Notes under the pieces: generated by a model
Database searches by the model: none
What the model was told of the DNA's origin: nothing
What the model saw: only the letters and a program-made list of their open reading frames with translations
DNA from: Moniliella sp. 'wahieum'
Lineage: Eukaryota
Reading direction: 5' to 3'
Assembly (NCBI GenBank): GCA_003971905.1
Contig: RSEE01000048.1
Span: forward strand, 434,001-498,000
Length of the DNA stretch: 64,000 bases
Shown here: one piece after another, positions 2,684 through 57,200 of the stretch
Layout: every line of letters starts with the position of its first letter
How positions within the stretch are numbered: the stretch's first letter is position 1
Made by a program: the position numbers and the translations under genes

Positions 2684-3365
2684 GACCCGCTCGGAGGAAA
2701 TTGATCTTCCTCCCCTGCCCACCTTTAGCTGGCTAGAGGTTCGGGCGTGTGCCCCGCTAGTCGGGTTGTCCAGGGACTACTATCCCGCCTTCATTCGTAT
2801 CTCCCCCCTCCCCCCCCGCTCGCTCTCTTCCCGTGCTGCGTTGCCCGTCGCGGTATGTACATGTTGCGACACCTGCCGGCCCTTGTCTCGTCCCATTTCT
2901 CTTTGCCTTCCGTAACTCTTCTTTTTTTGCCCCCGCTGGCGCCTTGGTATGTTGACTGGGTACACCTGATCCCCACCCGTTTGCACGGGTTGCACAGCGC
3001 ATCGATCGAGCTCCGATCCCAGCCAGCTGCGTGGCCTGGCCAAACGTCCGGTCAACCAGTTTGATGTCTGCGATTCGTCTCGTTGCCGTGCCATCCGTAG
3101 TGTGAAAGACAATGAGACGCCTTTGCAATCTCATCCTCCTCTCATTCCTACTACTGCCATATATCAGTTCCCAGCTGAGCACCGACAGCGCTATCTCCTG
3201 CAGTAGCCTGCTGGCCGGCCGCCGAGACAGCATCCCATCCATCCCGTCGGATCACTAGTCAGAGTCCAGATGTATAAAGGAAAGAACAGGTACCACCACC
3301 AGCCACCATGGGATCCAAGCGCACTCATCAGCCCCCCTCCGCCTGCGCCCCGTCGGCCCTACCGC

Positions 3366-4774
3366 TCACAACGGTCCTCGCCGCAGCGCCCCGGCCCACA
3401 CTGACGGATCCGCATCCAATTCTTGCGCATCCGACTCGTCCGACGCCTCATCCGAATCAAACGGGTTCAGCTCCATATCGGCGTCCGTCTCACCAGGCCG
3501 GAGGGGCGGACCAAGGGAAGAAGCAAATGGGTGCGACGATGGCCTGGCGGGGGTAGCGGGCCAAGAGGAGCGTGGGCCGCCAAGGCCGGGAAGTTCGTCG
3601 TCCGACACCTCCTCCACGTCCAACACCTTGATCGTCCTTCGCCAGCAGCGTGGAGGCGAGTCCAGCTCGGTATCGGGCAGTGCTATTTGGCCTTCTGGGC
3701 CGGGGCGCGTCCTCGAGCGGAGGCGAGGTGGAAAAGTGGCGGATCGCGACCGGCACCAACGCCGCAACCACCATCCCGCCCAAAATCAGCGCGTTGTGCA
3801 CGAGACAAGATGGAACTCGTCGGGGCTGGCCATCTCGTCTAGTTTTGGCCAATGGTCACATAGATAAACGAACCGGCCGCGATGCCCAAGGCGGTCGAGA
3901 TCCAAAAGATGGGCAGACTGATGCCTAGGTGCGGGCGAGGACGTTGATGACGCTGTGGGGCGGGACGGGCGCCATGCGGACCACAACCAAGTAACTGATC
4001 AGGTTTGATTCTTGGTGATCCGCGCTTTCCAGCTGTCCACGCGGCGGCTTCCAGTTGGGCAACACACTCAGCCGCGCCCATCGGCTTGCTGATCAGGTAC
4101 GCCAGCGACGCCCCCGTGGCAATCGTCTGGCCAGCGCACAAGAGGAAAAACAGACAATCCAGTCAATACATGAAGAGACAAGAACAGAAGCGGCGGAGTA
4201 TCGATTAAGGCGGGACGTACACAAACAAACCAATGGGTAGGCAACTTTGGTGCCCCACATGGCGCCACCAAGGATGGACATGTACGTGCTTCCCGGCACG
4301 GCAAAGGCTGGAGGAACAAGTAGACCGATCCAGGAGCATCAGACGGGTATTGTACCGGTCCTTGTACCGTTTGAGCAGCGTGTTGAGTGCCTTGAGGTGA
4401 TCAAACGAGCGAGGCACGCGGAAATCCCCCTGTCCCGCATCCATCCGCGGCAAGACGCAGTACAGCGTCACGCCCAGCGCCCCACCGACGACACAAATCA
4501 CACACAGCCATTGCTTGCCACCGACACGAGCACGCGCCGCCGCTCGGCACGCGTAAGCGGCTTGTACGCCGGATCCATCGGATCGTCCGTATCCTCCAGC
4601 GGCGGGCCCTCGAGCCACTGCCGCACCCGCTGCCGCGCCCGCGCAACCCGGCGGCCGCCGCGCCGCGCGCCATGGCGGCAGGTCAGTGCGCGGAAAAAGC
4701 CTCGATGGTGATGCCGGCACTCGTGTCCGATGCAGCATCTGCCTCAGACTCGTATGCGGCGTCGGCGTCGGCAT
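3366..4774 (-). CDS. TMEM41/Tvp38 (VTT/DedA, SNARE-associated Golgi) membrane protein
   Basis: Stitched frames give FRVPRSFDHLKALNTLLKRYKD, PGSTYMSILGGAMWG, IATGASLAYLIS, RMAPVPPHSVINVLAPHLGISLPIFWISTALGI and IYVTIGQKLDEM. Intron GTACGT..CAG at 4220-4127. Stop uncertain. Confidence 0.8.
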
Positions 4775-5300
4775 CGAGTTCGAGCTCGGAGCTGTCGCGG
4801 TCGTCGCGAGCCGAGGCGGGGCCGGCGGAGGTATGGAGGCTGACCGGCTGAAGGCCGAGTCGGCTGGGCGCCGTCGTCGTCGTCGTCGACGCGATGGTGC
4901 CGACACGCGGGCGGCGTGGGTACGTGGGACGGAGGGAGCGCATGATGGCCCACGGCGCTCCAGCTGCTGGTGGCGCGGCCGAGGGGGCGCGGGTGGCGGC
5001 GGCGGTGCGGCGCAGCGGTGAAAGTTGCAGGCGGGCGCCCAAATGCATAACCCTGCTGCCCAGCCACGTGGCTTAGCCAATCCCCTGCTGACCTCAGCAC
5101 CCCGTCTCGCATTCGCAGGAGAGCCAGCAGCCGCCGACTGCCATTACGAAGACAGCACACAACCCTACCCGGCACCGCGCCCGGGCCACCCACACTGGCG
5201 CCGTTGCGGTGCTGGCAGGCGGCGCTGCATGCTGGCCGGCTCTTTTCGCCGCCACGCCGCCGCCAGGCAGGCAGCATCCAGCCCACCACACCCCTCCGCC

Positions 5301-5899
5301 ATGCTGCCCACCGCCGCGTCGCCGTCGACTTTGCAAGGTCTACTCCCAGCTCGCCCTCGGCCCGAAACCATCTCGGGCCTCGCCGCGTTCAAGAAGCGCG
5401 CCGACGACGCCAAGAAGCACCTCGTCTCCCTCCAGGCCGAGCCCACCACCGTCGACTTTGCCCTACCGCAGCATCCTCAAGGTGCGTGCCCCTCCCCCCC
5501 CCTTGCGCATCCTGCGCCCCCGCCCCCGCGGCAGTATCACTGACTTCTATGGCTGGACCGCGCTGCGTGCAGAACACCAAGGTGGTGGATGAGCTGGAGA
5601 GCTGACGTCCAAGTTCCAGCCCGTGACGTACGACGTGGCTGCGCAAGTCAAGGCGATTGACGCGTTTGAGGCAAGGCAGTGGAGCAAGCCGAGGCGTCGG
5701 CGCAGAAGGTCGACACTGAACTTGTCTCGCTCAAGGCGACTGGACAACATTGCCCAGGCGCGCCCGGCGGACAGCTGACAACGACGGACGTGATCAATGC
5801 CAAGCCCGAGATCCAGGCCACGTTGCCGAGATGGTCAAGAACGGCAAGTGGGGCGTGCCCGGGTACTACGAAAGAGTTGGCTCCCTTTCCGTCATCTAA
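5301..5899 (+). CDS. ATP7: Mitochondrial ATP synthase subunit d
   Basis: KVYSQLALGPETISGLAAFKKRADDAKK..PTTVDF..YRSILK/NTKVVDELE..FQPVTYDV..EMVKNGKWGVPGY. Intron 5482-5572 (GTGCGT..CTGAC..CAG). TAA at 5897-5899. Confidence 0.88.
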
Positions 5900-6941
5900 T
5901 TGCGCCGCCCTTGCACTCTGCGGCAGCGAAAGGTCAACCATGCTTTGTTTCCCATATGCTCCCCCTCCGGCGACTCGGAGTGGAGGAAGAGGCTCGGGAA
6001 GTGGCGGATGGGGACAGATAGGTGGGAAGGTGCGTACGGGTGGCTCAAGCGGCGATGCGCCCGGGAGGACGGGGATAGCTGGAAGGAAGATCCGGGGTGG
6101 GTCTGGGACTGGTGTGTGGCTGCGGTGCCGATGTTGACGCCCGCAGCCTGATGGGACAGGAGAGGGGCGTGCGTTGCCAGCTTGGGCCAGCCTTGCGACT
6201 GTTCTGTCCTTCTCATCGCGGACATTGACGTTTGTCTACAGTAGCATGTAAAGAAGTGCGATGGATCGTAACATGAATACTCTACGAATGGGGGGAGGTC
6301 CATGAGGATGCTCGTGGCTCATGAGCGGCGTGAGCGGAAGGGGGTACAAATCAAACGGGGCTTATTGTTAGTACAAAAAGTGGCAAAGGAAGAGCCGTGA
6401 GGAGTAATCTGCTGTTGGCATTGGCATTGGCATTTGGATCTCACCTACCATCGGCAGCCGACTCTGCCAATTGGTCATCGTCTCGCCAGAGTCCTCTGCC
6501 GCTCGGCCCGTTGTCGGCCCGGCATCTGAGTCCGCTTCTTCTGACTCCTCTACTGGGCTTGCCTCGTTGTCCCCGCTGAAAGACAGGCGCCTGGGAACGT
6601 CGGGAACGCTTCGCATCTCGTCATTTTCCACATTGCCATCTTTGTTTCCATCTTGGTCCTCATCCACCTCTTCGCTCTCCTCGGCCCATGCAGTCGCCAC
6701 TGCCCTTCTTGCGCCCGTCGCTACCTCCCTGCGCTGGCTCGATGGGCCTTCCTCCTCTACCATCTTCGGGGACTGGACCGTGCGCCGTATTAGTCCATCG
6801 CTTGGAGTGCTCAAGAACGGTCGCGAAGGAAGGCGAGCACGGACAGACCATTTCGTATCCCAACACCACTGCAGGGATATTCAACTGGACTGTGAGGCAG
6901 TGGAACATGGGCTGGATCATGCCGGTGACGGTCGCGTACTC

Positions 6942-7122
6942 TGTCATAGTTTGGCTGATCTCGCTCCCATTTCCAATTTCTTCGTCTCGAGCGTCTCGCT
7001 CCTTCCCTGTTCCTTCCACTTCGCACCATGTCCTCTGTTCTTGCTTCTTCCCCACGAACGATTGCTACACCCCTTGGCCTAGTCCGATCCTGGTCTCCCT
7101 CGCCTTAGCCCCGACTGTGACA
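6942..7122. repeat. 3' terminal repeat (LTR-like, 181 bp), reverse complement of 12526-12706
   Basis: + strand TGTCATAGTTTGG...CCGACTGTGACA. The same peptide CHSLADLAP...LLHPLA appears in the + ORF 6471..7082 and the - ORF 12566..13336. Confidence 0.95.
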
Positions 7123-7137
7123 TTTTTGCCCCCTTTC
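7123..7137 (-). other. Polypurine tract
   Basis: Minus strand GAAAGGGGGCAAAAA directly abuts the 3' terminal repeat. Confidence 0.75.
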
Positions 7138-7139
7138 AG

Positions 7140-10100
7140 ACCTCATCTCCCGGGCGGCGACGAAGGCGAGAGAGGGCGAGTCGGCGGGCATGGGAGACAG
7201 GCTTATCGGGGTAGAGGGCGTGGAAACGAACCACTGGCTCGGCGTCATGAGACATGTCCGCAGCGGTACCCACTCCCTCTCGTGGACAGGATAGCCCCGG
7301 AAGTGAACAAAGTACTCAATGCGGCCTCCACGACCCTTGCGGCGAGAGTCGAGGACATGCTCGACCTCGTGATGAACCGCACCATCATCAGCAAACTCGG
7401 GGAGAGGAGGCGGGGGCTCGATCAAGCGGGCAGGGACCACGTCACCAGGGATGTAGGCTCGCAAGCGGGACACATGGAACACGTCATGGAGGTGTAGGTA
7501 GTCGGGGAGGCGGACCTGGTACGCGGCGCGGCCCACGGCGCGGACAATGGGAAAGGGGCCGAGGTAGATAGTCCAGGCCGTCAGAAGGCCGCTGGCTGGA
7601 CACATACCCGTCCCGACGGACCAAAACAGGCTGGCCGCAGTGAAGGAAGCCGCCTCGGTGCGCTGCTGATCGGCATAATGCTTGTAGCGTTCTTGGGCCG
7701 CGGCGAGCGTGCGGCGGGCCACCGCCTGGCCGAACGCAAATCCTCCAATATGACGCAGCATCGGGCACGGGCGAAGTGGAGGGCTCCAACTCCCCCGGGG
7801 GGAGTAACCATAGGTGAGGACAAAGGGGGACTGGTGGGTGCTCGAGTGGGAGGACTAGTTGTAGGCGAATTCGGCCGTGGGGAGGAGATCGAACCAGTTG
7901 GACTGCTGCTCGTCGAGGTAGCAGCGGAGGTACTGTTCGAGGATCTGGTTGAGTCGCTCAGTCTGGCCGTCCGTCTGGGGTGGTACGCGGTGCTGAGGCT
8001 CGACTTGATGCCCAAGTCGGCACACAAGGCTTGCCAGAAGTGGCTTGTGAAGGTCGTCCCCGATCACTCACCAGATCCCGGGGAAGGCCATGGTAGCGAA
8101 AGACCTGGTGTACAAACTGGCGTGCGAGCTGGGGCGCAGTGTCCGTCGTGTGGGCGGGAATGAAGTGACCCATTTTGGTAAAACGATCCACCACCACCAG
8201 AATCGCGTCGTAACCATTGGATCGGGGAAGCTGGGTAATGTGGTCCATCGTCAAGTGGGTCCACGGGCCTTGGGGAGGGGAAAGGGGCTGAAGGAGTCCA
8301 GCGGGTTGGTGGCGAGGCGCTTTGGTCCGTTGACAGCGGTCGCACGAGCGCACGTAGGCCCACACGTCGGCTGACAGGCGGGGCCACCAATATTGAGCGC
8401 GGACACGGGCCAACGTCTTGTCGCGCCCTTCATGGCCCGCCAATGCCGAGTCGTGGCTTGGTGGAGAATGGCAGCGCGGATCGGCGGGTCGCTGGGGACG
8501 TACACCTGGTTTCCGTGCCACAAAAGGCCGTCGCGGACCGTCAAGCATGGCGGGGTGTGCGTGGAGCCGTAGCAAGGGCCAACGAGGGTCACGAGGCAGG
8601 AGTTGGCGGATGCGCTGTCGAATCTCGTCGGCAGACACTCGCCCCACCACCGGTGTATCGGGGTCCGCCGCCATGAGCTCGAGGGCGGCGGCAGAAGTTC
8701 GGACATGGGCTCCCCAGTACTTGAGGTGCCGCGTCAGCGGGCGGGGCCCCTCAGCGAGGTCGGGACGGCGCGACAACCCGTCAGCCGCACCATTCTTCTG
8801 CCCGGCACGGTACCATAGCAGGCGTAGGGGGACAGGGTCTGGCGCCATCGGCCCTGGCGGCGGTTCAAAGGCGGGGACGGCGGAACGTAGCAATGGCCTC
8901 GTGGTCCGTAAGCACTTGGACAGTCTCAACACTTTCGACGTAATGGCGCCACACCTCCACGGCGGCCACGATGGCCAGCACCTCCTTTTCGGACGTAGTA
9001 TAGTTCAGCTCGGCCGCGGTGAACTTGCGAGAATGGAAGGCGACCGGCCGCCAACGACCGTGAACATCCTGCTGGGCGAGCACCGCACGAAGCGCCGCGT
9101 CCGACGCGTCAGTCTCGAGGCGAAGGGGGCGAGTGGGATCAAAGTGGCAGAGGAGGTGGGGCGAGGCAAAGACGCGCTTGAGCTCGGCAAACGCCTCTTC
9201 GCAGGCTGGGGTCCAAGAAAAACGCTGGTCCTTGCGTGTCAGGTCGGACAGAGGGGCTGAGATACGGGCAAAAGAACGGACGAAGTGACGGTAGTAGTTG
9301 GCGAAGCCGAGGAAGACTTGGACTTGGCGAGGGGTTCTGGGTGTTGGCCACGACCGAATCGACTCAACCTTGGACGGTCCATCCCGATCCCGTCAGGCGA
9401 AACGACGTAGCCCAGGTACTCGGTGCGGCGTGTGTGGAACTGACACTGTCGGGGTTGAGGTAGAACTTGGCCAGCTGCAGACGCCGGAGACCTCGGCAAC
9501 GTGGCGCTCGTGCTCCATCTCATTAGTCGAAAAGATGAGGATGTCGTCGAGGTATGCCAATACCGAGACGTCGAGGAGGTCACGGGGAGGTCGTTCATCA
9601 CGGCTTGGAAGGTGGCAGGGGCGTTGCAAAGGCCAAACGGCATAACAAGGGATTCAAAGTGTCCGTACCGAGTGCGGAAGGCAGTCTTACTCTCGTCGCC
9701 TTCTCTCACCCGCAACAAGTTATACCCCCACGGAGGTCAAGCTTGGTGAAGCGGGCCCCCGAGAGCGGTCCAACGAGTCACTAATCAGAGGCAGCCAACC
9801 GGTTCTTGATCGTAACCGAGTTGAGCGCACGATAGTCCACGCACAGGCGCAACGAGCCGTCCTTCTTTTTGACAAACAGGACGCCGCGCCGAAGGGAGAC
9901 TTGGATGGACGGATGAACCCTGCAGCCAGGTTCTCCTTGAGCCACTGGGACAAGGCCTGCATTTCGCCCGTCGACAAGGGGTAGAGGCGAGTGAAGGTGG
10001 GGGCGGCGCCGGGGACAAGGTCGATGGCGTGATCGGCGGCACGATGGGCGGGGAGCGTCTTAGCCCCTGACTTGGAAAAGGCGCTAAGGAAGGAGTGGTA

Positions 10101-11135
10101 GCGGGGAGGGACTGTCTGGCGGACGTGCTCGAGGTACTCGGGTGTGTCACACTCGTCGGGAAACATTGGCTCGGGACCGCCAGCGACCGCGACGGACGAG
10201 ACGGCCAACTCGGGCTCAGGGGGAAATGCGACGTTTACCATGGCCTCGGGTTCCTTGACCACCTCGAGCTCAAACTGCTCCAGAGAGAGAATGTCAATAG
10301 GCGGTCCAGACCGAGAAGGCAAGGAGGGACCCGGGCCAGAGGGCGCCGAGGAGGGGGTGTGGGGAAGAGGCTGCGTACCGCGCGACGGGGGGTGGGACGA
10401 AGTGGGTAAGAGAGGGGAGGGGACGGGCTGGGAGGGACCGGGAGGGAACCGAGGAGGAAAGGAATCGAGTTGACAGAGGGGGGCGAGATGGGGTTAGATG
10501 GGGAGGTGGACTTGGGCCGGGGCCCGGGCGAGTGCTGGTGCTGGTGCGTAGTCTTGGTCTTGGGCTGGTCTTGGTGCTGGGGCTGGTCTTGGTGCTTGGT
10601 CTGGTCTTGGTGCTTGGGCTGGTCTTGGTGCTTGGGCTGGTCTTGGGGCTTGGGTGGGGGTTGGGGCTGAGGCCGGGGTACAGTCGTGGAAGGCATATGG
10701 TGATCACGGCACTGCACCTTATCAAAGTAAAGGGTGTGCGAGGGGTAGTCGGTGCTGGGGTTGTGAGTCTCAAGGAAAGGGAGGCCGAGGATGAGGGGGT
10801 GATGGAGGGAAGTGAGGAAGAACTCCTCAGTTGAGACATGGGAGCCGATCACGACAGGCGCCTTCACCGCTTGGGTCACCAGACCCGAGGAAATGGGACG
10901 CCCGTCTACCACCCTGACGACCACAGGCGACGGCAGCGTGCGAGGAACCAGGCCATGCTGGCGGGCAAAACCATGGTCCATGAAAATACTGTTCGCACCA
11001 GAGTCGACCAAGGCGGTGACCGGGATCGGGGAAAAGGGAGACGGAGACGAGGGGCCAGGATGCAGATGGGCGAGTACCGTGAAAGACCGAGAGGAGGGGG
11101 GACAGGGCCCCACTGCCGCCTCAGACAGAATCAGC
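7140..11135 (-). CDS. Pol polyprotein (aspartic protease, RT, RNase H, integrase, chromodomain); many frameshifts
   Basis: ALVDSGA (PR); [28 protein letters not shown] and YLDDILIFS (RT); [20 protein letters not shown] (RH); [41 protein letters not shown] and YLGPFPI (IN); [29 protein letters not shown] (chromodomain). Confidence 0.92.
10535..10632 (-). repeat. 18-bp tandem repeat (QPKHQD-like) in the PR-RT linker
   Basis: About 5 copies of CAGCCCAAGCACCAAGAC variants on the minus strand. Confidence 0.85.
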
Positions 11136-12484
11136 GGCGGGGCCGAGGAGGCGGCGGGGAGACCTGGACGTGGGGCACTCGGCAATGAGGTGGTCACGGG
11201 AACCGCAGTAGAAGCACGCACCTTGAGCGCGGCGCTCGGTGCGCCGTGCCGCCGCTTCGGCGGTGGCGGTGGCTGCGCTGAGGTCCATGGGCTCGGCTTC
11301 GGGCGACGAGGGCCGAAACCAATGATTGCCGCCCGATCCCGGGGAGGTTGCGGTACCATGAGCGCCCAACGATTGCGATTGGTCGATGTCAATGGCCGCT
11401 GTGCGCAGTTGTTCGAAACTGATCCGTCCAAAGTGAGCCGACTCGCCGCGGGAGGCGATTGCGTCACGCACCCGCGGCTTCAAGCCGTACAGAAAGTGAT
11501 AGTAGCGGTCCTCATCCGACGCGTTGGGGTTCCAGCGACGCAGCAGAACCGTGAACGTAGCGGAATAGTCCGCTGCAGATCCCGTCTGCCGAAGACGACC
11601 AAACTCCTCAAACGCCTTCAGCGCCGGGTTGCGCTCGCCCCACTGCTCCAGGAAAGCTGCGCGAAACGCAGGCCAAGACCGGAGGGCGGGTGTGGTGCGC
11701 GCCTCCAGGGGAAGGGCCACCTCCGAACCGAACTGCTCGACCCAAGTGAGGGCCTCCCCCTGCAGCAGGCCCATGAAGCGGTCGATCCATGCCGCCGCGC
11801 CCAGATGCGTGAGGGCGACGCGCGCGTAAATCTCGAAGGAGGTGACGACGTGCTGGGCCTGGACCCGGTCCCGAGAGTTGGGATTCGCACCAGACGACGG
11901 GCGGAAACGAACGGGCTCGAACATCTTCGGCTCTTCCGACACCTTGTTCGGGATGGCGGTCAGATCACCATAAGGCCCAGGGGCGGGAGCGGGGGCGGGG
12001 CCCGAGGACACCACGCCAGTTTGAGCCTCCCGTACCGAGGCGGCCAACCGGGCCTCTTCCGCGGCGAGCGCCGCCTCCTCCCGCCGCTGACGGAGGCGGT
12101 GCTCACGGCGCTTCGCCTCTTGCTCATCCTCGAAAGCGCGGCGCTGGTCCTCCTGGGCTGCAAGGTAGGCCTGGTGTTCCCGGGCCTCCGTCAACAGAAG
12201 CTGGCGCATTCTGCGGGCCTCATCGACCCGGCGCTGAGCGGCCTCGAGGTCCAGGCCGGACAGGTCGGAGGCAGGCAATGTATACCCCGGGGGCGCGGGC
12301 GCAACAGACGGAGCTGCATGGGGGGGTTCAGAGGGGCCAGCCGGGTGGAACCACTCCGGGCCATCGTCGTCGAACGGAGCGTCAGAGGGGGGTCGGACGG
12401 GGGTCGGATCGGGCCGCGCCGCGCGATGGGGTGCGGCGCGCTAGGGTTACTGGGGTCATGGGGGTTGTCGTGGATCGAGGACAT
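11121..12484 (-). CDS. Retrotransposon Gag with CCHC zinc knuckle
   Basis: ORF 11121..12278 contains LLQGEALTW, LRQTGSAADYSATF, FLYGLKPRVR, EPMDL and CFYCGSRDHLIAEC. Probable ATG at 12484 with one frameshift. Confidence 0.88.
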
Positions 12485-12514
12485 CTCTGGTCGGGCTCGC
12501 CTGTTGACGGTTAG

Positions 12515-12523
12515 ACGAACGAT
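12515..12523 (-). other. Putative self-priming primer-binding site (Tf1-type)
   Basis: ATCGTTCGT lies 2 nt downstream of the 5' repeat and is complementary to ACGAACGAT inside that repeat (12594-12586). No tRNA-type TGG PBS. Confidence 0.65.
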
Positions 12524-12525
12524 AA

Positions 12526-12706
12526 TGTCACAGTCGGGGCTAAGGCGAGGGAGACCAGGATCGGACTAGGCCAAGGGGTGTAGCAATCGTTCGTGGGGAA
12601 GAAGCAAGAACAGAGGACATGGTGCGAAGTGGAAGGAACAGGGAAGGAGCGAGACGCTCGAGACGAAGAAATTGGAAATGGGAGCGAGATCAGCCAAACT
12701 ATGACA
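12526..12706. repeat. 5' terminal repeat (LTR-like, 181 bp)
   Basis: + strand TGTCACAGTCGGGG...CCAAACTATGACA, the reverse complement of 6942-7122. Confidence 0.95.
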
Positions 12707-12857
12707 TACCCACAGCCTTTCCTCGGGAGGAACCAAGTGGGACTGCAGTGGAAACGGTGACCGTCTTGGCACTATGCTCCCAATCCTACTTGACCGACTT
12801 GGGCTGAAACGCTGACGCAGACCGATCGCTTCGTTGACGATATGCCGTACACAAACC

Positions 12858-13116
12858 AAGAGAAGAAAGAGACAGAGAAAGAGAAGAGAAGAGAAGAGAG
12901 AGGAAGAGAAGAGAAGAGAGAAGAGAAGAGAAGAGAAGAGGAAGAGAAGAGAAGAGAAGAGAGAGAAGAGAAAGAGAAGGAGAGGAAGAGAGAGAAGAGA
13001 AGGAAGAGAAGAAGAGAAGAGAAGAGAGAGAAGAGAAGAGAAGAGAAGAGAAGAGAAGAGAGAGAAGAGAAGAGAAGAGAAAGAAGAGAAGAGAAGAGAA
13101 GAGAAAGAGAAGAAAA
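12858..13116 (+). repeat. Homopurine (GAGAA)n-like microsatellite, ~260 bp
   Basis: Essentially only A and G on the + strand. Confidence 0.95.
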
Positions 13117-13263
13117 TAGGAAACCACAGAAGAAAATAGGAAACCCACCCTTGTCTAGCTGCCTGACGTGTTCCCCAGGCCCATTCGAGCAATGCAGTGG
13201 AAAGTACACAATCGGTACTTTCCACTGCTGTGACGCTGGGACCCCAGTCTCCCCAAATAAACA

Positions 13264-13380
13264 CATGGCTAATCGAAATTTCTGGTGCACAATCTTGTGG
13301 GCCTTGCCCACCTTGAATTTCGTACGTAGTCCTCACATATCTATCCGGAACCTTGTTACCGGCATTTTCGATTAGCTATG
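13264..13380. repeat. 117-bp repeat unit 1 with ~15-bp terminal inverted repeats (MITE-like)
   Basis: CATGGCTAATCGAAA...TTTCGATTAGCTATG; near-identical to 13642-13757. Confidence 0.8.
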
Positions 13381-13641
13381 CAGGCAAGATACCGATTCGA
13401 GCGGTCCACGTCGGCGGCATCCTCACAGTGGTCGGCACAGTGGACCGTATTGAGCAGGATGGGTAGTTCGCTGCGTCGACGGCTCGTCGATATCCTGGCT
13501 GTTGTCCCCCCTCTTTGCGGCCATGGCCCCACACTGCCTCGCCCCCACCCTTGCACCAACACGTGCCGATACAGCATCGAGGTGAACACCTCAGTTCGAT
13601 GCGTACAGTATGCCTCGCCTACCATACCCGCTGCACCAACG

Positions 13642-13757
13642 CATGGCTAATCGAAATTTCTTGTGCACAATCTTGTGGGCCTTGCTCACCTTGAATTTTG
13701 TACGTAGTCCTCACATATCTATCCGGAACCTTGTTACCAGCGTTTCGATTAGCTATG
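13642..13757. repeat. 116-bp repeat unit 2 with terminal inverted repeats (MITE-like)
   Basis: Direct-orientation copy of 13264-13380 with a few substitutions. Confidence 0.8.
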
Positions 13758-14300
13758 CGGACATGGTGGGATTCGATTGGCTCCTTCTGTCCATTCGCCC
13801 CTGTCGTAAGCAATGGCAACGGTGTCGGCCCCGCAGCCTCCTGATGGCCACTTGCATATCTACAGGCAACTCGGCGGCGCTACATCAGGCCCAGCGTACA
13901 CGGGCGAGGGAACGAGCGCACTAAATCATGACAACTAGGGGGGAGGGGGGGAAGCGTGTCTGTGTGTATTTTTCGTTTGTCAAACCAACCGAGGAGATGG
14001 ATCGCCGTCCAGGGCCAGGCCAGGCCCGGCCGGGCGAGAAAAACAAAAGAAACCAAAAGAGAAAAGAGAACCAAGAAAAAAGTGTCCGTTCCATTGGCCA
14101 GGCTGCCCAGAACCGCAGTCCGTCGGCTTCGTCTCAATCTCACCACATGTTACAAAAAACAGAGAAACAAAATAGAGAGTGGATGGAGCCAAGAGGTGGA
14201 GGGTTGGAGGGGGAGGGGGGAATAAATGTCCGGGGGAGAAAGGGGGGGAGGAATGGCAACGCAACATCGAATAGCCTGCCGCGCTGCGCTGCCGGGACGA

Positions 14301-33865: not shown

Positions 33866-34850
33866 TGTCACGGGCGAAGACGGGGCTTGGCAAGCCCAGC
33901 GAAGCCTACGCGTGTGCCTTTCGCCATCCTAATCCCGTCCCCAAGTTGGTCACGGGGTCAGAGTCGATCTGATCCGATCTCAGACCTCAGCTGAGGCCCG
34001 TCCGCTCTACCCAGGAATAGACCGCGCTCCCAGATTCGACTCAGTGTGTTCGAGCGCGGCTGGTAAGACTGCCAGGGCGTCGATTCCCAGTACTACGTTG
34101 TACCGCGCGCGACCAAATACTCAGTTGCCTCTTACCCAAGTGAATTGGAGGCTACCGCATGGCCACCCAATTAGCAGTATTTTCCCTTGCGACGATCGTC
34201 ACCCTTGCCCGTTTTTACCTTGCCTTTCTCGGTTACCCGTACAGCAACCGTCCTCCCTGTTTTGCCCTGCCCCCGTTCTTCCTCTATTACGTTCAATTGT
34301 TTCCTTTTCGTCCTTGACTGGTTCCAGTGGTTTGTGGTTTTCCCCCACGGTCCATTGGCGTGTCCCCCTACTCTCTCCTCCTCGCCAATTGATCAAGCCA
34401 GTACAGAAACCTCCTCTCCTTAGTTTTGCTCCTCCAGCTCCCGTCTTCATCTCTCCGCCCCTCAGTCAACCCAGTTCGCGCGTGCCTCGCAGCCGTGCCA
34501 CGCCGAAGTCCAGCTCAGTTGATGAGGCGCGTGTGATCCCGTCTCCAGCCACGCCGCCCCCCCAGTCCTAGTCCAGCTCCAGTCCGGCAGGGTCGATCCT
34601 CCGCTGCCACTCTGTGTCCCTGAGCCCGAAGGCTTCACTGGACACCCTACTTCCGCCGAAGCGGGTGCTACGCAGCCTTGCCACACTGGCAGCCGCGTCT
34701 GCTTTACGCCGAAAGGCCTCTCCTTGTCCCACGCCCCCGCTCCCACCAATAAGCACAAGCGCGTACCTACCGTGAATCGACTTTAGGACCTCCGAGGGAT
34801 TGCACCCCCCCCCCCGGGCGGCCCCCCTGGCGGTGCGCCCGCCCGTGACA
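33866..34850. mobile_element. Solo LTR or non-autonomous TIR element, 985 bp
   Basis: Perfect 11-bp terminal inverted repeat TGTCACGGGCG...CGCCCGTGACA. Flanks ACAAT / AAAAT form a 5-bp TSD with one mismatch. Confidence 0.75.
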
Positions 34851-35065
34851 AAAATAACGGAACTCCTAGGCCTGATGAGAAGGGACTGAAGGTACGTTGG
34901 CCAAAGCACACGAGCCACCCGGTGGCCCAACACGACTGTTGAACCTTTTCTGGATCATTACGAGACGGGGTTGAGCTTTTGGAAATGGTTTGCAAGAGGC
35001 CTTTTTGGCAACAGTATATGTTTGGTTTTCCCTTCTGTCACCGCTTCCTTCAATCGTTTTGTGGG

Positions 35066-38000
35066 CGGGCTCCAACTCCCCCCGGGGAGAGAGTTACCAT
35101 CAGTGAGGACACACAGGAACTGGTGGGTGTGGGGGTGCTCGAGTGGTGGGAGGACAAGTTGTTAGGCACCGCGGCCGTCGAACCACAATTGGATTGCTGT
35201 TCGTCGAGGTAACAGCGGAGGTACTGTTCGAGGTCCTGGTTGAGGCACTCGGTATGGCCGTCGGTCTGGAGGTGGAACGCGGGGCTGAGGCTCGACTTGG
35301 TACTCAAGTCGGCACACAAGGCTTGGCAGAAGTGGCTCGTGAAGACCGGTCCCCGATCACTCACCAGATCTCGGGGAAGGTCATGGTAGCGAAAAACAGG
35401 GTGTACAAACTGGGGTGCGACTTGTGGCGCGGTGTCCGTCGTGTGGGTGGGAATCAAGTGACCCATTTTGGCGAACCGATCCACCACACCATCAAAATCG
35501 CGTCTGTGACCATTGGATCGGGGGAGCTGGGTGATGTGGTCCATCGACAAGTGGGACCACGGGCCTTGGGGAGGAGGAAGGGGCTGAAGGAGTCCGGCGG
35601 GCTGGTAGCGAGGCACTTTGGTCCGTTGGCAGCGGTCGTACGGGCACACGTAGCCCATACGTCGGCTAACAGGTGGGGCCACCAATATTGAGCGCAAACA
35701 CGGACGAGCATCTTGTCACGCCCTTGGTGGCCCACCAAGGCCAAGTCGTGGGCTTGATGGGGGATGATAGCGCGGATCTGCGGGTCGCCAGGGATGTAGA
35801 CCTGGTTACAGCGCCACAAAAGACCTTCGCGGACCGTCAAGGCATCATGGCGGGGTGGATGTGGAGCCGTGGCAAAGGGGACCAACGAGGATCGCGGGGC
35901 ACCAGTTGATGAATGCGCTGTCGGATCTCGTCGGTAGACACGCGCCCCACCACCGGTGTACTTGGGTCCGCCGCCAAGAGATCGAGGGCGGCTGCAGAAC
36001 GCTCGGACACGGGATCCACTGGCAGTACCTGGGGTGCCGCGTTGGCGGGCCGGGACCCTTCAGCGAAGTCAGGATGGCGCAACAACCCGTCCGCCGCACC
36101 ATTCTTCGGTCCGGCACGGTACACCATAGCAAGGCGGTAGGGGGACAGGGTCTGGGGCCATAGGCCCTGGCGGCGGTTCAACAGGCGCGGGGACTGAAGA
36201 AAGTACTAACAATGGCCCTATGCTCTGTAAGTACTTGGACAGTCTCAACACTTTCGATATAGTGGCGCCACCCCTTCACGGCCACCACGATGGCCAGCAC
36301 CTCCTTTTCGGACGAGGTGTAGTTCAGATGCGAGGTCACGGTGAACTTGCGAGAATGGAAGGCGACCGGCCGCCGACCACCGTCCACACATCCTGCTGGG
36401 CGAGCACCTCGCCAAACGCCGCGTTCGAAACGACGGTCTCGAGGCGGAGGGGGCGAGTGGGATCAAAGTGTGGCAGAGGATGTGGGGCGAGGCAAAGAGG
36501 CGCTTGAGCTCCGCAAACGCCTCTTCGCAGGCTGATGGGGTCCAAGAACAAACCCGCTGGACCTTGCGTGACAGGTCGGACAGTGGAGCCGAGGTATGGG
36601 CAATAAACGGACAAAGTGACGGTAGTAGTTGGCGAAGCCGAGGGAGACCTGTACTTGGCGAGGCCTTCTGGGTGTTGGCCACGACCGAATCGACTCGACC
36701 TTGAACGGGTCCATCCCGATCCCGTGAGGCGAAACGGCGTAGCCCAGGTACTCTCGGTGCGGGAGGTGTGGAACAGACACTTGTCGGGGTTGAAGTAGAA
36801 GAACTAGGCCCGCTGGAGGCGCCGGAGGACCTCGGTAACGTGACACTCGTGTTCCCCCTCTCGTTAGTCGAAAAAATGAGGATGTAGTCAAGATTATATG
36901 ATATATGCAAGGACCGAGACGTCGAGGGGGTCGCGGAGGATGTCGTTCATCATAGCTTGGAAGGTGTGGCAGGGGCGTTGCAGAGGCCAAAGGGCATAAA
37001 AGGGATTAAAAGTGCCCGTCCCAAGTGCGGAAGGCAGTCTTACTCTCGTCGCCTTCTCTAACCCGCAACAAGTTATACGCCCCATGGAGGTTGAGCTTTG
37101 TGAAGATGCGGGCGCCCGAAAGGATATCCAACGAGTCGCTAATCAGAGGCAGGGCCAGCCGGGTTTTGACCGTAACTGAGTTATGGAGCGCCCGATAATA
37201 GTCCACGCCCAGGCGCAGCGAGCCGGCCTTCTTTTTATAAAGGACGCCCGTGCCGAAGTGAGAGACTTGGACGGACGGATGAAACCTGAAGCTAGGTTTT
37301 CCTCGAGCCATTGGGACAAAGCCTGCATTTCGTCCGTCGACAAAATTAAAGAGGAAGAGATGAGAGAAGATGAAGGCGGCGCTGGGGACAAGATCGATGT
37401 TGGCCTGAACTGCGGCACAATGGGCGGGAAGCGTCTTAGCCCCTGGCTTGGAAAAGGCGCTAAGGAAAGAGTGGTAGCGGGGAGGGTCCGTGTGGTGGTT
37501 GTGCTCGAGGTGCTCGGGTGTGTCAAACCGGGAACATTGGCTCGGGACCGTTAGCGACTGCGACGGACGAGAAGACGTCCAACTCGGGCTCGGGGGAGAA
37601 ATGGGACGTTTGCCATGGCCTGGGATTCCCTAACCACCCCAAGCTCAAACTGCTCCAGAGAGAGAAGGTCAATAGGCGGTCCAGACCGAGAAGGCAGGGA
37701 GGGACCCGGGCCAGAGAGCGCAGAGGACAGAGGGTAATGGGAAGAGGCTGCGTGCCGCGCGAGGGGGAGTGGGGAGAAGTGGAGAAGGGAGGGGAAGAGT
37801 GGACAGGCTGGGAGGGAACCGTGGTGGGAAAAGGAATCGAGTTTACAGAGGAGGACGGGGTGGTGGTACATGGGGACGTGGATTTGGGCCGGGGCCCGGG
37901 CTGATGCTGGTGCTGATGCTGGTGCTGGTGCTGGTGCTGGTGCTGGTGCTGGTGCTGGTGCTGGTGCTGAGGCACGGTCTTGGATCGAATATGGTGTGAT

Positions 38001-38985
38001 ATCACGGCACTGCAAGTTATCAAAACGAAGAGTGTGCAAGGGTCGTCGGCGCTGGGGTTGTGAGTTTCAAGGAAGGGGAGAACGAAGATGAGGGGGTGAT
38101 GGAGGGAAGTGAGGGAAAACTCCTAAATTGACACATGCATGGGAGCCACCGCTTGGGTCACCAGATCGTAGGAAATGGGACGCCCATCCACCACCCTGAC
38201 GACCAAATGCGACACGGCAGCGTGCGAGCAACCACCGGCCAGGCCGGCGGGCAAAGCCATGGTCCATGAAAATGCTCTTCTCACAACAGAGTCGACCAAG
38301 GCGGTGACTGGTATCGGGACGAAGGGAGACGGAGACAAGGGACCAGGATGCAGATGGACGAGTACCGGAGGAGGGGGAACAGAGAGCCTCACGGCCGCCT
38401 CAGACAGAATCAGCCGGGGGACCGGGGAGGCGGCGCGGAAACTTGAACATGTTGGGGCACTCGGCAATGAGGTGGCCACGGGAGCAGCAGTAGAAGCACG
38501 CGCATTGAACACTGCGTTCGGTGCGCCGGGCCGCCGCTTCGGCAGTGGTAGTGGCGGCGCTGAGGTCCATGGGATCGGTCTCGGGGGATGATCGATGACG
38601 GCCGAAACCAACTATGATTGCCGCCCGATCCCGAGGAAACTGCTGTACGTGAGCGCCTGGCAAGTGGGATTGGTCCATGTCAATGGCCTCTGTGCGCAGT
38701 TCTTCGAAACTGATCCGTGCAAAGTGAGCCGGCTCGTGGCGGGAGGCGATTGCGTCACGTACCCGCGGCTTCAAACCGTATATAGGAAGTTCCAGTAGCT
38801 TCCTCATCCGACACGTTGGAGTTTCAGCGACGCAGCAGGACCGTGAATCAAACGCCTTCTGCGCCTGATTGCGCTCGCGCCACTGCTTCAGAAAGGCTGC
38901 ACGAAACGCAGCCCATGACTGAAGGCGGGCGAGGTGCGCGCCTCCAGAGGAATAACCACCTCCGAACCGAACCGCTCCACTCAAC
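35066..38985 (-). mobile_element. Degenerate, doubly truncated copy of the 6942-12706 Gypsy family (partial gag to integrase core; no LTRs or chromodomain)
   Basis: Colinear with ~7781-11740: [57 protein letters not shown] and QTDGHTECLNQ. Many indels. Confidence 0.9.
37903..37968. repeat. (TGCTGG)n hexamer microsatellite in the PR-RT linker of copy 2
   Basis: About 11 units, at the position where copy 1 has the 18-bp repeat. Confidence 0.85.
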
Positions 38986-41245: not shown

Positions 41246-43116
41246 ATGGTCTCTGCATCCAAGGCCAAGCGCCAAGCCGAGAAGGCAGCCTAGAACCCCA
41301 AAGACGCCAGCTCGTCCAAGACGTCCAAGTCCAAGTCTTCCAAGGCCTTCAAGAGCACCGATGCCACCTCCGCTGATGGCGCGGACGGTGCGGCCGACCA
41401 GATGAAGAAGTTGGAACTGGCGACGGACCGCAACGCGTCTGGTGTTCTTACATCCGACGTGCAGTCCCGCGACGTCCATATTGACAACTTCTCCATGTCT
41501 TTCCATGGCCGTCTTCTTCTCGATGGCACTTCCATCAAACTTAACTATGGCCAGCGGTACGGTCTGTTGGGAGAGAATGGTTCGGGAAAGACAACGCTGC
41601 TGGAGGCAATCAACGGGCGTGACGTCGAGATCCCAGAGCACATTGATATTCACCTTGTCCAGGGTGAGGTGGAACCATCGGAGATGAACGCGCTCGAGTA
41701 CTGCATTGCTTCCGCCAAGGAGAAGGTGGAGAAGTTGGAGAAGCGGATTGAAGATGTGTCGGCGACCGACGATGTGGACGAATTGCTGATTGAATCGATG
41801 TACGAGGAGTTGGATGCGCTCGACCCTTCCACCTTTGAGGCGAAAGCTTCTTCCATCCTCCACGGCCTTGGGTTTACGGTCCAGTCAATGAAGAAGCCTA
41901 CGAAGGACTTGTCTGGTGGCTGGCGTATGCGCGTCTCGCTCGCCCGTGCCCTGTTCATCAAGCCCCACATGCTTCTCCTTGACGAGCCGACCAACCACTT
42001 GGATTTGGGAAGTGTTGTGTGGCTGGAGGCCTACCTGGCCAAGTACCCCAACATTCTCGTCCTCACGTCTCACTCCGCTGACTTTATGGACGAGGTGTGC
42101 ACCAACATTATCGACCTGACGATGGACAAACAGCTGGTTTACATGGTGGAAATTATTCCACCTAAGTCCGGGTTAAAAAGGAGAATGAGGTGAACCAGAT
42201 GAAGGCGTACTACAAGCAGCAAGAGGAGATTGCAAAGATCAAGCGCTTCATTGCCTCAGCGGGTACGTATGCCAACCTGGTCAAGCAGGCCCAGTCCAAG
42301 CAAAAGATTATCGATAAGATGGAGGCTGCAGGCTTGGTTCAGCCAGTACGCAAGCCTAAAAAGTTGCGGTTCAACTTTGAGGATGTGGCACGCTTACCGC
42401 CACCCAACATCGCTTTCTCCGACTGGCCTTCTCCTACGGGCAAGAAGGAAGACTACTTGTACAAGGGTCTCGAGCTCGCAGTCGACATGGATTCGCGCGT
42501 TGCTATTGTTGGGGCCAACGGGACGGGTAAGTCAACCTTGCTCAATCTCATGACTGGTGCACTGTCTCCCGTCGAGGGAACCGTCAACCGCCACCCATCG
42601 ATCAAGTTGGCCAAGTACTCGCAACATTCGGCTGACCAGTTGCCCTACGACAAGAGCCCACTTGACTATATGGAATCCAAGTATTCTCAAAAGTTTCCCA
42701 ACAAGGATGTCCAGTTTTGGCGCGGCCAGATTGGCCGGTTTGGCCTGACAGGCTCCCACCAAACGTCGGAGATTCGTACGCTGTCGGATGGGTTGCGGAA
42801 TCGGGTGGTGTTCTCCCAGTTGGCCATGGAATCGCCCCACATTATTCTCCTGGACGAGCCAACGAACCATCTGGACATGACCTCGATTGATGCCCTTGCC
42901 CAGGCCATCAACGAATTCTCGGGCGGCGTGTTGATTGTCTCGCACGATTTCCGCCTGCTCAAGGCAGTGGCCAAGGACATTTGGGAAGTTCGCGATGACC
43001 GGATTGTCAACTTGACCAAGGAGGAAAACTTGGACATTGACGGTTACAGGAAACGCCTCCACGCCGAAACGGCTGAGCAGATCAAAAAGGCCGAGCTGCT
43101 CACCAAGCGCTCGTAA
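41246..43116 (+). CDS. ARB1: ABC-F family ATPase (ABCF2/Arb1)
   Basis: MVSASKAKR..., two ABC domains (GENGSGKTT, LSGGWRMRVSLA, LLLDEPTNHLD; GANGTGKST, LSDGLRNR), linker RFIASAGTYANLVKQAQSKQKIIDKM. In-frame TAG at 41291 and a shift/TAA near 42143-42165. Confidence 0.93.
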
Positions 43117-54253: not shown

Positions 54254-57200
54254 TCAGAGTGTGAACAGGAAGCGCAAGTCCGACACACTCAGCCGTCCCA
54301 TCGCGCTGTCGTCCTTGCCGATCGCAGCCTCAATCATGGCGCTCTTCTTGTTTTGTAGTTCGATGATGCGACTCTCAATCGAGTTCTCAATGATCAGCCG
54401 CTTGACCACAATCGGCCGGTGCTGGCCAATGCGGTGAATGCGGTCCATTGCCTGCGTCTCCACGACGGGTTCCACCACGGCTGACACGAGCCCAATCACA
54501 ATGTCAGTTCACTTCTCTCATTACGCGTCAAGGGCAAGGTACGCCAGAGGGTACTTACATCCATCAGATACACCCGGCTTGCCTCGACCAAGTTGAGTGC
54601 CACGCCACCTGCCTTGAGGGAGAGGAGGAGAACGGTGGTGTGGGTGTTGGCTTGAAAGTGCTTGATGGTCTTGTCTCGCGCTTCGGGGGTCATGGAACCT
54701 TCAAGGCGGCAGATGGAGAAACCAGCGCGTTGGAGCCGGAACGCAATCAGGTCCAAAAAATTAGTAAACTGACTAAACACAAGCGATTTGATCGTCGAAT
54801 CCTCCCGACGGAGCGAGATGAGCTCTTCGACCAACGCCTCAATCTTGGTTGACGACCGCCACTGATCCATGTTGAGACGGGAGAGGATGCCCTGCCGCGC
54901 AGTGTCGTACCCGACCGGCGGGGAAAGCGCCTCTTGTTCCAGATCAATCACAATCGTCGCATGGCAGTAGGGGCAGTCGTGGGCATGCGCGTGCGAGCCC
55001 GGTTCCGTGTCGAGATATTCGCGAATGCAGAGGCGGCAAAAGACGTGCCGGCACTTGGACAGGATCGGGTCCTCTGCCACATCCATACAGATCCTGCACA
55101 CTCGATTATTCTGCTCCGCATCATCGGCGAGCAGGTGCTGTTGAATTCCGGTTTGGGAGCGAAGCACCAGATCGGGGTGGTTGGCCATCTGACGCATGCG
55201 GGTAAGGAGGGTAAAAATGTTGCTGTAGTTGTTCAGTACGGTACCCTGGTTGAGATAGGTGGAGAATTTGCGGGTAGTGTCCTTGTACAAGCTTTCGTAC
55301 AGGTCTTCCTCCTCTTCGTTGAACTGGTCGCGCCGGACCAGAACCGTGCGAGGCGGCAATCCCATATCATCCGCACGCTCTAGTTTGGTACGGCGGAGCA
55401 TGATGTGCGCCAAGAGCGAGTGCAGACGACCAAATGCGTCTCGCCCCTCGCCCGAGTCGACGCCACCACGCTGAATGGGTTTGAGAATCTCACTGTTCCA
55501 GAAAGAGGAATGATGCATGGGCGTGTGGCCGCATTGGTCGCAGGAGCGCTTATCGCTAAAACCAGTGAAGTGACTTGCATTCGCATCGCAGGCAAAAGTA
55601 GAACGCGTAAGGGTCTGCCCCCAAGAAACGGATCATAGAGTAGAGCTCTCCCACTCGGTTCTGCAGGGGTGTGCCGGAAAGACACCACCGATAATCTCCT
55701 GACAGCTCGAACGCAGCCTTGGCCATGTTGGTGGTTCGCTCCTTGATGTTGTGCGCTTCGTCCAACACAATCCGATGCCAATGGGTGCTGTGGAGGGGGC
55801 TGTCTTCAAAAATAAGTTCGCCATTGCGCCTCCACCCTTTCACCTGCTTGCTGAACGATCGTTCCATCGTTTGGTAGGAGGTCAACACCACATCGTAGTT
55901 CTTGAGCTCGTTCGCATTCCGTTCGCGTTTGAGACCATGCCAAAGAAGGACATTCATCCCAGGCGTGTACTTGTTAATTTCGTTGCGCCACTGCATGATT
56001 GCGACCGTGGGAGCAACCACCAATGCTGGGCCTTTTTTCTCGTGATAGTCCGACATGAAGAGCCCGATCATCTGGATCGTCTTGCCTGCCCATCTCGTCA
56101 GCAAGAATACCACCGGCCCACTCCGACTTTTCCTGTTTGGTGAGCCAGTTGATGCCCTCGAGCTGGAAGGGAGTAGTTTGATCGTCATGCCTGGTGGCTG
56201 TTCAGCCTCTTCGACTTTCCGAACGGGGGATTGGGCGAGGTCCTCCCAAATGGTAGTTAACTCGGGGTGATGGGGCAACAACCGTTCGCGCAATTGGTCG
56301 TACCGGGACCGAGTATCTTTTCGCTTACGCGCTCGCTCTCGCCTCCGCCGTTGGATTGCCGTCTCATAGCGAATGTCCTCGGCCATCGAGCCACGAGCCA
56401 AAGGAACATCGGACAAGGCACCATCAGCAGCGTTCGGAGCATAGGCAGCGAACATGGGCATCACTGTCCGACTCGGAATCGACCTGACGTTGTTGCGCGT
56501 CATCAACCTGAAAGTCACTGTCGTCGTCATCGTCATCGTCTTGTTCGCTATCATCGATCTTGGCCTGTTTGGATGACCGCGTAGCACGCTTACGTGGAGG
56601 GGGGGGCGAGAGGGGGCCCAAATCACTGTCGCTCTCAGACTTGTACTTGCGCTTTTTCTCTTGCGGTGCGGTCCGTCCACGAATTGGGGAAGGCGCCTTG
56701 GCCTTTCCTTTCCTTTCGCTTTGCCACCATTTGGGCCATGTGGTGGCTGGGAGAGCGGCAAGGAGGAGGAGAGGCACTGGCTGATTCCTTCTTAACGGCA
56801 GATTTGGCTTTGGACCGAGTGGATGGAAGGGTAACTTGGAAGGCATCAAAACAGCATCAACCTCATCCTCGTCGGTAGTGTCGCCCTCCATGTTGGATTC
56901 GACGGCACCCGTCTCCTCTGCCTCCTCCACTCTTCCTCCTTCACCTCTCCTTGAGGGAGGGGCGCCCCTGCGACCAGAGGTAGACCGAGCGGGGTTACGA
57001 CGAGAAGCCTGGGCCGCTTGGCAGGTGTGGGGGGGAGATGCCTCCAAACCGTCGCTCGCCGGGACCACTACGGTGGCGGCAGCTGCAGTCTTGGCCGCAC
57101 CACGGCGGGCGGACGCACGGGTGGGCGGGCGCACAGGGACATGGCACGGAGAGACTCAGGGTCTGGGTCGGTGAGGCTGTCGGATTCGTCCACGACCACG

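Follow-up and report, generated by a model that had tools for sequence, protein, structure and literature searches.

The young Gypsy-type element described here lies within a 64,000-nt stretch of DNA (the window) and ends in two LTRs of opposite orientation. Most likely, it is a single defective copy (or an error in the assembly) rather than a mobile element of a new type. The copy is a derivative of a Ty3/Gypsy chromovirus family and not a structurally normal member of it: its own LTRs are not direct, the 3' LTR being replaced by an antisense copy of the whole LTR. The family itself is best taken as an ordinary Ty3/Gypsy chromovirus of the self-priming Tf1/sushi type, resident in a Ustilaginomycotina fungus. 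With moderate confidence, we attribute the copy, known from the sequence of this assembly alone, to one aberrant cDNA of that ordinary chromovirus, carrying two U3 ends and inserted by integrase.

Between the repeats, Pfam finds on the minus strand, in this order, Retrotrans_gag, zf-CCHC, an aspartyl protease, RVT_1, RT_RNaseH, Integrase_H2C2, rve, SH3_Tf2-1 and Chromo. This bears out an earlier reading made from the sequence only, which had placed Gag and PR-RT-RH-DDE integrase-chromodomain there. The order PR-RT-RH-IN is that of Ty3/Gypsy chromoviruses, the catalytic motifs of the enzymes are present, and a chromodomain is found at the integrase C terminus (PF00385, E 1.3e-05; PF24626, E 6.4e-12). 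The same reading had called the element complete, which holds for its domain content but not for its reading frames, as pol is interrupted by many frameshifts in this assembly (Table 1). The three matches of highest identity have this combination of SH3 and chromodomain too. Even the nearest database proteins reach only about 55% identity in RNase H, and the family therefore appears unnamed in the sets searched. The window contains no Rfam match, and no tRNA gene was found in it. Near 5300-5900, a possible ATP synthase subunit d gene with frameshifts gave no Pfam match and is left out of the evidence.

Table 1 Features of the element and its target site, in window coordinates
Feature	Position	Strand	Remarks
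Left target-site pentamer TACTC	6937..6941	+	
3' LTR, flipped	6942..7122	+	U3-R-U5 on + strand; U3 tip outward, U5 tip toward PPT
Aberrant junction	7123..7127	-	5 A between PPT core and flipped LTR; in run X1, 2 A, then U3 tip
Polypurine tract (PPT)	7126..7137	-	abuts left repeat in the window; adjoins U3 tip in X1 contig
Integrase (H2C2 finger, D-D-E motifs, GPF motif) with SH3_Tf2-1 and chromodomain	7190..8830	-	frameshift-split in this assembly
Reverse transcriptase (YLDD) and RNase H	8868..10364	-	frameshift-split in this assembly
Aspartyl protease (DSGA)	10700..11017	-	
gag reading frame (Retrotrans_gag, zinc knuckle)	11121..12440	-	439 codons stop to stop
Non-tRNA primer-binding site (PBS)	12515..12523	-	2 nt past 5' LTR; complementary to 12586-12594
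5' LTR, normal orientation U3-R-U5	12526..12706	-	TG..CA; PBS-LTR joint also in X1
Predicted self-primer, start of R	12586..12594	-	69 nt from U5 end; transcription start inferred
Right target-site pentamer TACCC	12707..12711	+	vs left, one substitution or one-base loss

The two arms are exact reverse complements of each other (181/181 nt), as had been claimed from inspection by eye, and they form the sole long inverted repeat in the window. The match extends 2 nt inward (183 nt in total) and 0 nt outward, and no third LTR copy was found in the window. The polarity of the flipped LTR was set by the self-priming site and by the direct junctions seen in the public run X1. The PPT indeed lies beside the left LTR. 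In addition, the tips of the 5' LTR are complementary to each other at 11 of 12 nt when the 2-nt extensions are included, with 7 nt perfect across the junction.

The flanking pentamers match at 4 of 5 positions, as previously noted, and are a candidate target-site duplication. A match of this kind has P = 0.017 by chance; if a real duplication had suffered one error, the value would be about 0.054, which puts the likelihood ratio at just about 3. Hence, it is weak evidence, also compatible with two independent insertions. The two flanks resemble each other no more than shuffled sequences do, and reading through the empty site gives plausible open frames under both duplication models alike. Neither Pfam on 5 flank frames nor a word-indexed search with the flanks gave a match, and no homologue joined both flanks into one gene. 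With phmmer, the flanks gave 5 weak matches (40-45% identity over 17-22 residues of long repetitive proteins), which we took as chance; an Atlas search was uninformative (best score 0.82, recognition 1062).

The 5' end has the layout of a self-priming element. The PBS is the complement of a segment within the 5' LTR and not of the 3' end of a tRNA, a trait of the Tf1/sushi self-priming group, and related elements have the same geometry, with a 2-nt spacer followed by an 8-9 nt complement inside the LTR. None of 5000 shuffled LTRs gave a 9-nt PBS complement; the fold of the whole hairpin is less distinctive (z only -1.8; 11 of 200 shuffles equally good). The inverted arms are predicted to form a panhandle of -157.9 kcal/mol, as against -10.9 kcal/mol for the self-primer duplex. 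In a read-through RNA of this copy, R-U5 would be locked together with the self-primer into a duplex of 71 bp.

The family shares several features with self-priming Ty3/Gypsy elements, with Tf1/Tf2 and Tj1 of Schizosaccharomyces and with fungal chromoviruses such as MAGGY (PMC4600332): the Gag-PR-RT-RH-IN order, SH3_Tf2-1 and a chromodomain on the integrase, a PBS complementary to the inside of the 5' LTR, a PPT, TG..CA ends and, as a candidate here, a 5-bp duplication. Unlike these elements, this one copy has an antisense 3' LTR.

The layout of the family was obtained from X1, one public metagenome run of low depth, from one study and from another strain than the assembly's. The comparison spans 3000-12523 of the window, up to the right LTR. 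No read or contig covers the flanks of this locus or its own junctions, and the run is evidence on the family, not on the locus. Record 8 of X1 (724 nt, depth 8.85) runs through 12161-12523, then one LTR, then onward from 7126. Its joints 7124->12523 and 6942->7126 are both opposite-strand, which corresponds to direct LTRs: the path leads from the PPT through the LTR into the PBS, all in direct orientation. Read depth agrees with this layout: the contigs seen predict 6.42 in bin 6816-7133 (6.4 observed) and 5.52 in bin 7134-7451 (5.51 observed). The bin depths are thus fully accounted for by these contigs, none of which carries the junction of the window. Contigs drop rare variants, and a de Bruijn path gives junctions, not a molecule. 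Within this one run and study, the normal layout of the family is LTR-PBS-gag-pol-PPT-LTR with direct LTRs. In X1, two-U3-end copies are excluded as the family's main form; a recurrent by-product in the source strain is still compatible with these data. Among other runs, X3 gave one 33-nt piece only and X2 nothing, which counts neither for nor against the direct form, and no RNA run containing the element was found among the runs listed. Exact patterns for LTR-PBS in metagenome contigs and for PPT-LTR in viral contigs had 0 matches.

Related elements with a clean target duplication follow the direct layout as well. In 39 of 78 related loci fetched, a pair of repeats lay on either side of RNase H, the top match being direct in 30 and inverted in 9. 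We checked 14 direct candidates for duplications and dropped 5 of them, 2 because no duplication was seen and 3 because they lacked a TG..CA pair. All 9 elements with a perfect 5-bp target duplication and TG..CA have direct LTRs. These relatives represent one PBS type and few samples and are about 45-50% identical in RNase H; they are therefore a control for the clade, not for the family. Among 10 inspected loci with inverted matches, none had an inverted pair on the PBS side and the PPT side. They resemble nested or neighbouring opposite copies, weak matches of 69-80%, or a contig-end effect. In one (L023), the inverted repeat (513 nt, 97%) abuts RT, not a PBS; a secondary inverted match of 102 nt at L037 lies outside the inspected set.

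An aberrant cDNA would arise as follows. During reverse transcription, the strand fresh from copying the PPT may jump to the U5 end of plus-strand LTR DNA and copy backwards; equivalently, plus-strand strong-stop DNA might mis-prime where the PPT meets U3. The jump could be assisted by a few extra A and by the near-palindromic tips of the LTR. The product would have two U3 ends, both of which integrase could use as att sites, yielding a duplication of about 5 bp. The copy would probably be a dead end in cis: its minus strong-stop DNA would match the RNA 3' end in sense and be unable to transfer, and its self-primer would be caught in the 71-bp duplex.

The following observations point to this route. 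The breakpoints coincide exactly with the LTR tips, and the inverted arm retains 2 nt beyond U5, as an unprocessed cDNA end would. Furthermore, the 3 extra A at the PPT junction run opposite to the error trend of the assembly: in all 12 indels listed (of 30 rows) in the comparison with X1, letters are missing from the window, and 10 of the 12 adjoin the same base. The 5 A of the window against 2 A in X1 may also be a strain difference. A pure microhomology switch predicts 2 A, so that the junction is only partly accounted for; compared with a clean flip, an end-join or a jump in reverse transcription fits the 5 A somewhat better. According to the in vitro results given in PMC3035444, template-independent synthesis by Tf1 RT is strong, and the enzyme carries out strand transfer of the clamp type; with HIV-1 RT the clamp activity required C or G in a 2-nt duplex. 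The A/T join seen here lacks this C or G, which counts against the jump model.

An assembly artefact is an unlikely alternative to the aberrant cDNA. The locus would be truly direct, one LTR having been reversed during gap filling, hybrid threading or local reassembly. The assembly is indel-rich, with 30 indel rows against X1 over the element, and host genes appear frame-split too (the SNF2 profile at 29-183 and 182-290 in two frames, and an ABC-F gene likewise, an intron being possible in both). Both junctions of the left LTR are imperfect, and the sole independent data, those of X1, have the direct form. On the other hand, two error-free LTRs at this indel rate are unsurprising (P about 0.13), and assemblers join repeats via real overlaps. 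Neither real junction (PPT-U3 or U5-PBS) contains the PPT-U5 join of the window, the 5-nt palindrome of the tips is far under any overlap length, and extra letters are opposite to the usual error of this assembly.

Rearrangement after insertion is a doubtful reading as well. The 3' LTR of a normal copy could have been flipped or overwritten when replication or repair switched template via the near-palindromic tips. Alternatively, two opposite copies could have been fused by a microhomology deletion, so that the LTR of one came to abut the PPT of the other. The complementarity of the tips favours such a rearrangement, and the weak target duplication is compatible with two independent insertions. 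A clean microhomology event would leave 2 A at the junction, however, where the window has 5, and fusion leaves the 4/5 flank match to coincidence (P about 0.017). The earlier suggestion of a one-off rearranged copy is supported in substance, the LTRs of the family being direct in X1, while its in-place flip through the LTR's own terminal repeat is at odds with the 5 A. Ectopic LTR-LTR recombination was ruled out on geometry: ordinary homologous exchange keeps the PPT beside U3 and cannot yield PPT-U5.

A propagating inverted-LTR retroelement, using a DIRS-like route without an internal complementary region (ICR) or moving as DNA as a Gypsy-to-Ginger intermediate, is very improbable, despite identical arms and att ends, a complete domain set and an arm length inside the 40-270 bp range of Ginger1 TIRs (PMC2836005): family LTRs are direct in X1, the 5' LTR carries an ordinary self-priming site, whose use the predicted panhandle would block, and no inspected relative has the paired inverted arrangement. 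No ICR was found, in line with the sequence-only reading: PBS aside, the longest stretch shared by the LTR and the interior of the element is 10 nt. The proposal of a new replicating architecture made in that reading is not supported. No tyrosine recombinase family was found in 25 frames scanned, and a DDE integrase is present instead. LTR-type integrases work on free cDNA ends, and chromosomal excision by them is not known.

DIRS-1, as portrayed in PMC7192593, likewise has gag, RT and RNase H enclosed by inverted terminal repeats, and differs in its tyrosine recombinase, non-identical ITRs and essential ICR; our element has a DDE integrase, protease, PPT, PBS and identical arms. Ginger1 and Ginger2 resemble it in their Gypsy-type DDE enzyme with a GPY/F motif, TGT.. 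termini and similar arm length, and are cut-and-paste DNA transposons with mostly 4-bp target duplications, according to the account in PMC2836005. Unlike them, the element has complete LTRs as its arms and keeps gag, PR, RT, RH, PBS and PPT; a Ginger has a DDE enzyme without RT or RNase H, and here RVT_1 and RT_RNaseH are both present. No Gypsy element with inverted LTRs was found in the literature searched, mostly outside subscription journals. A single guppy foamy-like ERV insert is described with an 'inverted LTR' (PMC5210030). It too is an isolated integrase-type LTR element whose relatives are not so described there; it differs as a vertebrate retrovirus, that description gives no junction, duplication or mechanism, and the inverted LTR of the guppy insert may likewise stem from assembly.

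If it is one defective copy only, the element is of little importance, except that it cleanly captures an error of reverse transcription or repair. Its structure would escape LTR finders that require direct repeats. It is improbable, in our estimate, that the self-priming chromoviruses of this fungus repeatedly make integration-competent two-U3-end cDNA by a stereotyped PPT jump, giving TIR-bounded DDE units and hairpin sources, of which a few might propagate. If such insertions were recurrent, they would define an error path in self-primed reverse transcription. They would also provide a built-in 71-bp hairpin RNA source against their own family, a means for the element to seed its own silencing, and, as TIR-bounded DDE units, a natural route from Gypsy to Ginger-like elements, on which an LTR element could plausibly begin to turn into one bounded by TIRs.

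The left 181-nt repeat of the element is the reverse complement of the right one with 0 mismatches, and the inverted arms run 2 further bases inward. Hence, the identical inverted repeats described by the sequence-only reading are a real feature of the assembly. No third LTR copy was found in a repeat comparison of the window. The internal content claimed by that reading was confirmed: the minus strand encodes gag with a zinc knuckle, protease, RT, RNase H, integrase (H2C2, rve), SH3_Tf2-1 and a chromodomain, with the expected catalytic motifs in the enzymes. One host enzyme gene of the window has its nearest proteins in Ustilaginomycotina, the best named matches (71-73%) being from Malassezia and Ustilago.

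Features of the element, of its surroundings in the window and of two related metagenome loci (L017, L023)
Feature	Position	Observation
Left repeat	6942-7122	
PPT	7126-7137	left end
Tandem repeat, element	10536-10665	18 nt x 5.8 (QDQPKH-type peptide), between protease and RT; units differ from those of second copy
PBS side	12515-12523	right end
Right repeat	12526-12706	
Simple repeat	12858-13145	AAGAG-type, about 260 nt, 150 nt off the element's 5' end
Direct repeat, right flank	13260-13381 and 13638-13758	122 nt, 94% identical, 378 nt apart; no family match found
Likely solo LTR, another family	33866-34850	about 985 nt; 11-nt perfect terminal inverted repeat; flanks match 4 of 5 (ACAAT/AAAAT); 214 nt from second copy
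Second, older internal-region copy	35064-38984	80% by BLAST, same strand; gag and integrase truncated; many small insertions; no match to the 181-nt LTR
Tandem repeat, second copy	37900-37969	6 nt x 11.7, between protease and RT
Host ABC-F gene	41294-43116	split over two frames
Host SNF2/RING helicase gene	54496-56791	split over two frames
LTR copies facing opposite ways	L023:2-514 and 3706-4218	nested in RT
Oppositely oriented LTR copy	L017:9930-11175	18 nt past 3' LTR

Located 2 bases past the right repeat is a 9-nt site that can pair with positions 113-121 of the LTR. A comparable 9-nt match arose in 0 of 5000 shuffled LTRs, but the whole self-priming hairpin has only modest stability (z -1.8). 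Self-priming with this layout is described for Tf1 and Tj1 in excerpts of PMC4600332, and restated in PMC5006619; likewise, the predicted site of the element is complementary to a stretch of its own LTR. In related elements, the spacer is likewise 2 nt long, and the complement 8 nt. Because the predicted site follows the right repeat, the latter is the normal 5' LTR and the left repeat, behind the PPT, the antisense one. U3 ends therefore occupy both outer tips of the element.

The family was compared with the contigs of a public food metagenome run (X1), where 0.45 of the sampled words were found. Over 3000-12523, depth was about 1-9 on the element and the flank was hardly touched. In a 724-nt contig, 12161-12523 is followed by a single LTR, oriented like the right copy, and this by the sequence from 7126 on (joints 7124->12523 and 6942->7126; 364+183+177 nt). 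Thus, the PBS side is joined to the PPT side via a single LTR, in direct arrangement. A second contig (6972-7124, depth 2.3, ending at about 7124) carries a diverged LTR variant with at least 8 substitutions among those listed, so at least two LTR types of the family occur in the sample. In the two junction bins, the contigs seen account for all the depth (6.42 expected, 6.4 observed; 5.52 expected, 5.51 observed), therefore none of them carries the PPT-to-U5 join of the window. The family thus has normal, direct LTRs in X1, which represents one run of one study, another strain and low depth, in contigs that drop rare forms and leave the locus flanks uncovered. This does not bear out the new inverted-LTR architecture that had been proposed.

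In addition, 78 related loci, distant relatives from few samples, were fetched. Five of 14 direct candidates were dropped on checking, and all nine loci with a TG..CA LTR pair and a perfect 5-bp duplication are direct. An inverted pair of PBS-side and PPT-side LTRs was seen in none of the 10 loci inspected for their inverted matches. No description of a Gypsy family with inverted LTRs was found in the literature searched. An excerpt of PMC5210030 mentions in passing a single guppy ERV with an inverted LTR, and the term "inverted LTR" means other things in the available parts of PMC8786324 and of a bioRxiv preprint.

The simplest account of the flipped LTR, to which we give an even chance, is a template jump during reverse transcription. 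After the PPT, X1 has 2 A and the U3 tip, whereas the window has 5 A and the U5 tip. Of these 5 A, the last two match the spacer between U5 and PBS; judging from where the primer lies, they would be what an unprocessed U5 cDNA end carries. Between the LTR tips, 11 of 12 bases are complementary. At the PPT/U3 border, RT would switch to plus-strand LTR DNA at its U5 end, a few bases being added, and then copy the LTR backwards, giving a cDNA with two U3 att ends. Integrases can take two like ends in vitro. According to an excerpt of PMC3035444, Tf1 RT shows strong template-independent synthesis and clamps onto short 3' overlaps in vitro; the C or G that HIV-1 RT required in the overlap for clamping counts against a pure A/T clamp at the window junction.

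Sequence quality bears on the locus as well. The pol of the element is broken by frameshifts. Against X1, the element shows 30 indel entries; the 12 listed are all letters absent from the window, 10 of them adjoining the same base. Because of these missing letters and the frame-split host genes, assembly errors probably caused the frameshifts, and the copy is likely to be young. Misassembly of the locus itself is a somewhat unlikely explanation of the inverted arrangement. As for the claimed target-site duplication, the outer pentamers TACTC and TACCC do agree at four of five positions, but an exact 4-of-5 match has a probability of 0.017 by chance and of about 0.054 for a true duplication with one error; the same assembly error rate weakens it as evidence. 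Homology searches of the flanks found no homologue tying both into one gene. A flip or fusion after insertion is an unlikely origin.

A propagating lineage with inverted LTRs is highly improbable, since, with the flipped LTR at the RNA 3' end, minus strong-stop DNA would match that end in sense and be unable to transfer, since R-U5 of a read-through RNA would form a 71-bp duplex with the flipped LTR (-157.9 kcal/mol, versus -10.9 for the self-primer duplex), and since neither an internal complementary region, as already reported from sequence, nor a tyrosine recombinase was found in the element. In contrast, DIRS-1 handles inverted ends by both, the former being essential (PMC7192593, in part). 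Gingers, as outlined in part of PMC2836005, combine Gypsy-type enzymes with TIRs of 40-270 bp but are DNA transposons, whereas the element retains the whole retro machinery. This copy is thus predicted not to propagate. The bolder reading, that copies with two U3 ends are a recurrent by-product, is quite doubtful. Most likely, the element is a single aberrant copy from an otherwise ordinary family of self-priming chromoviruses rather than a new retroelement architecture.
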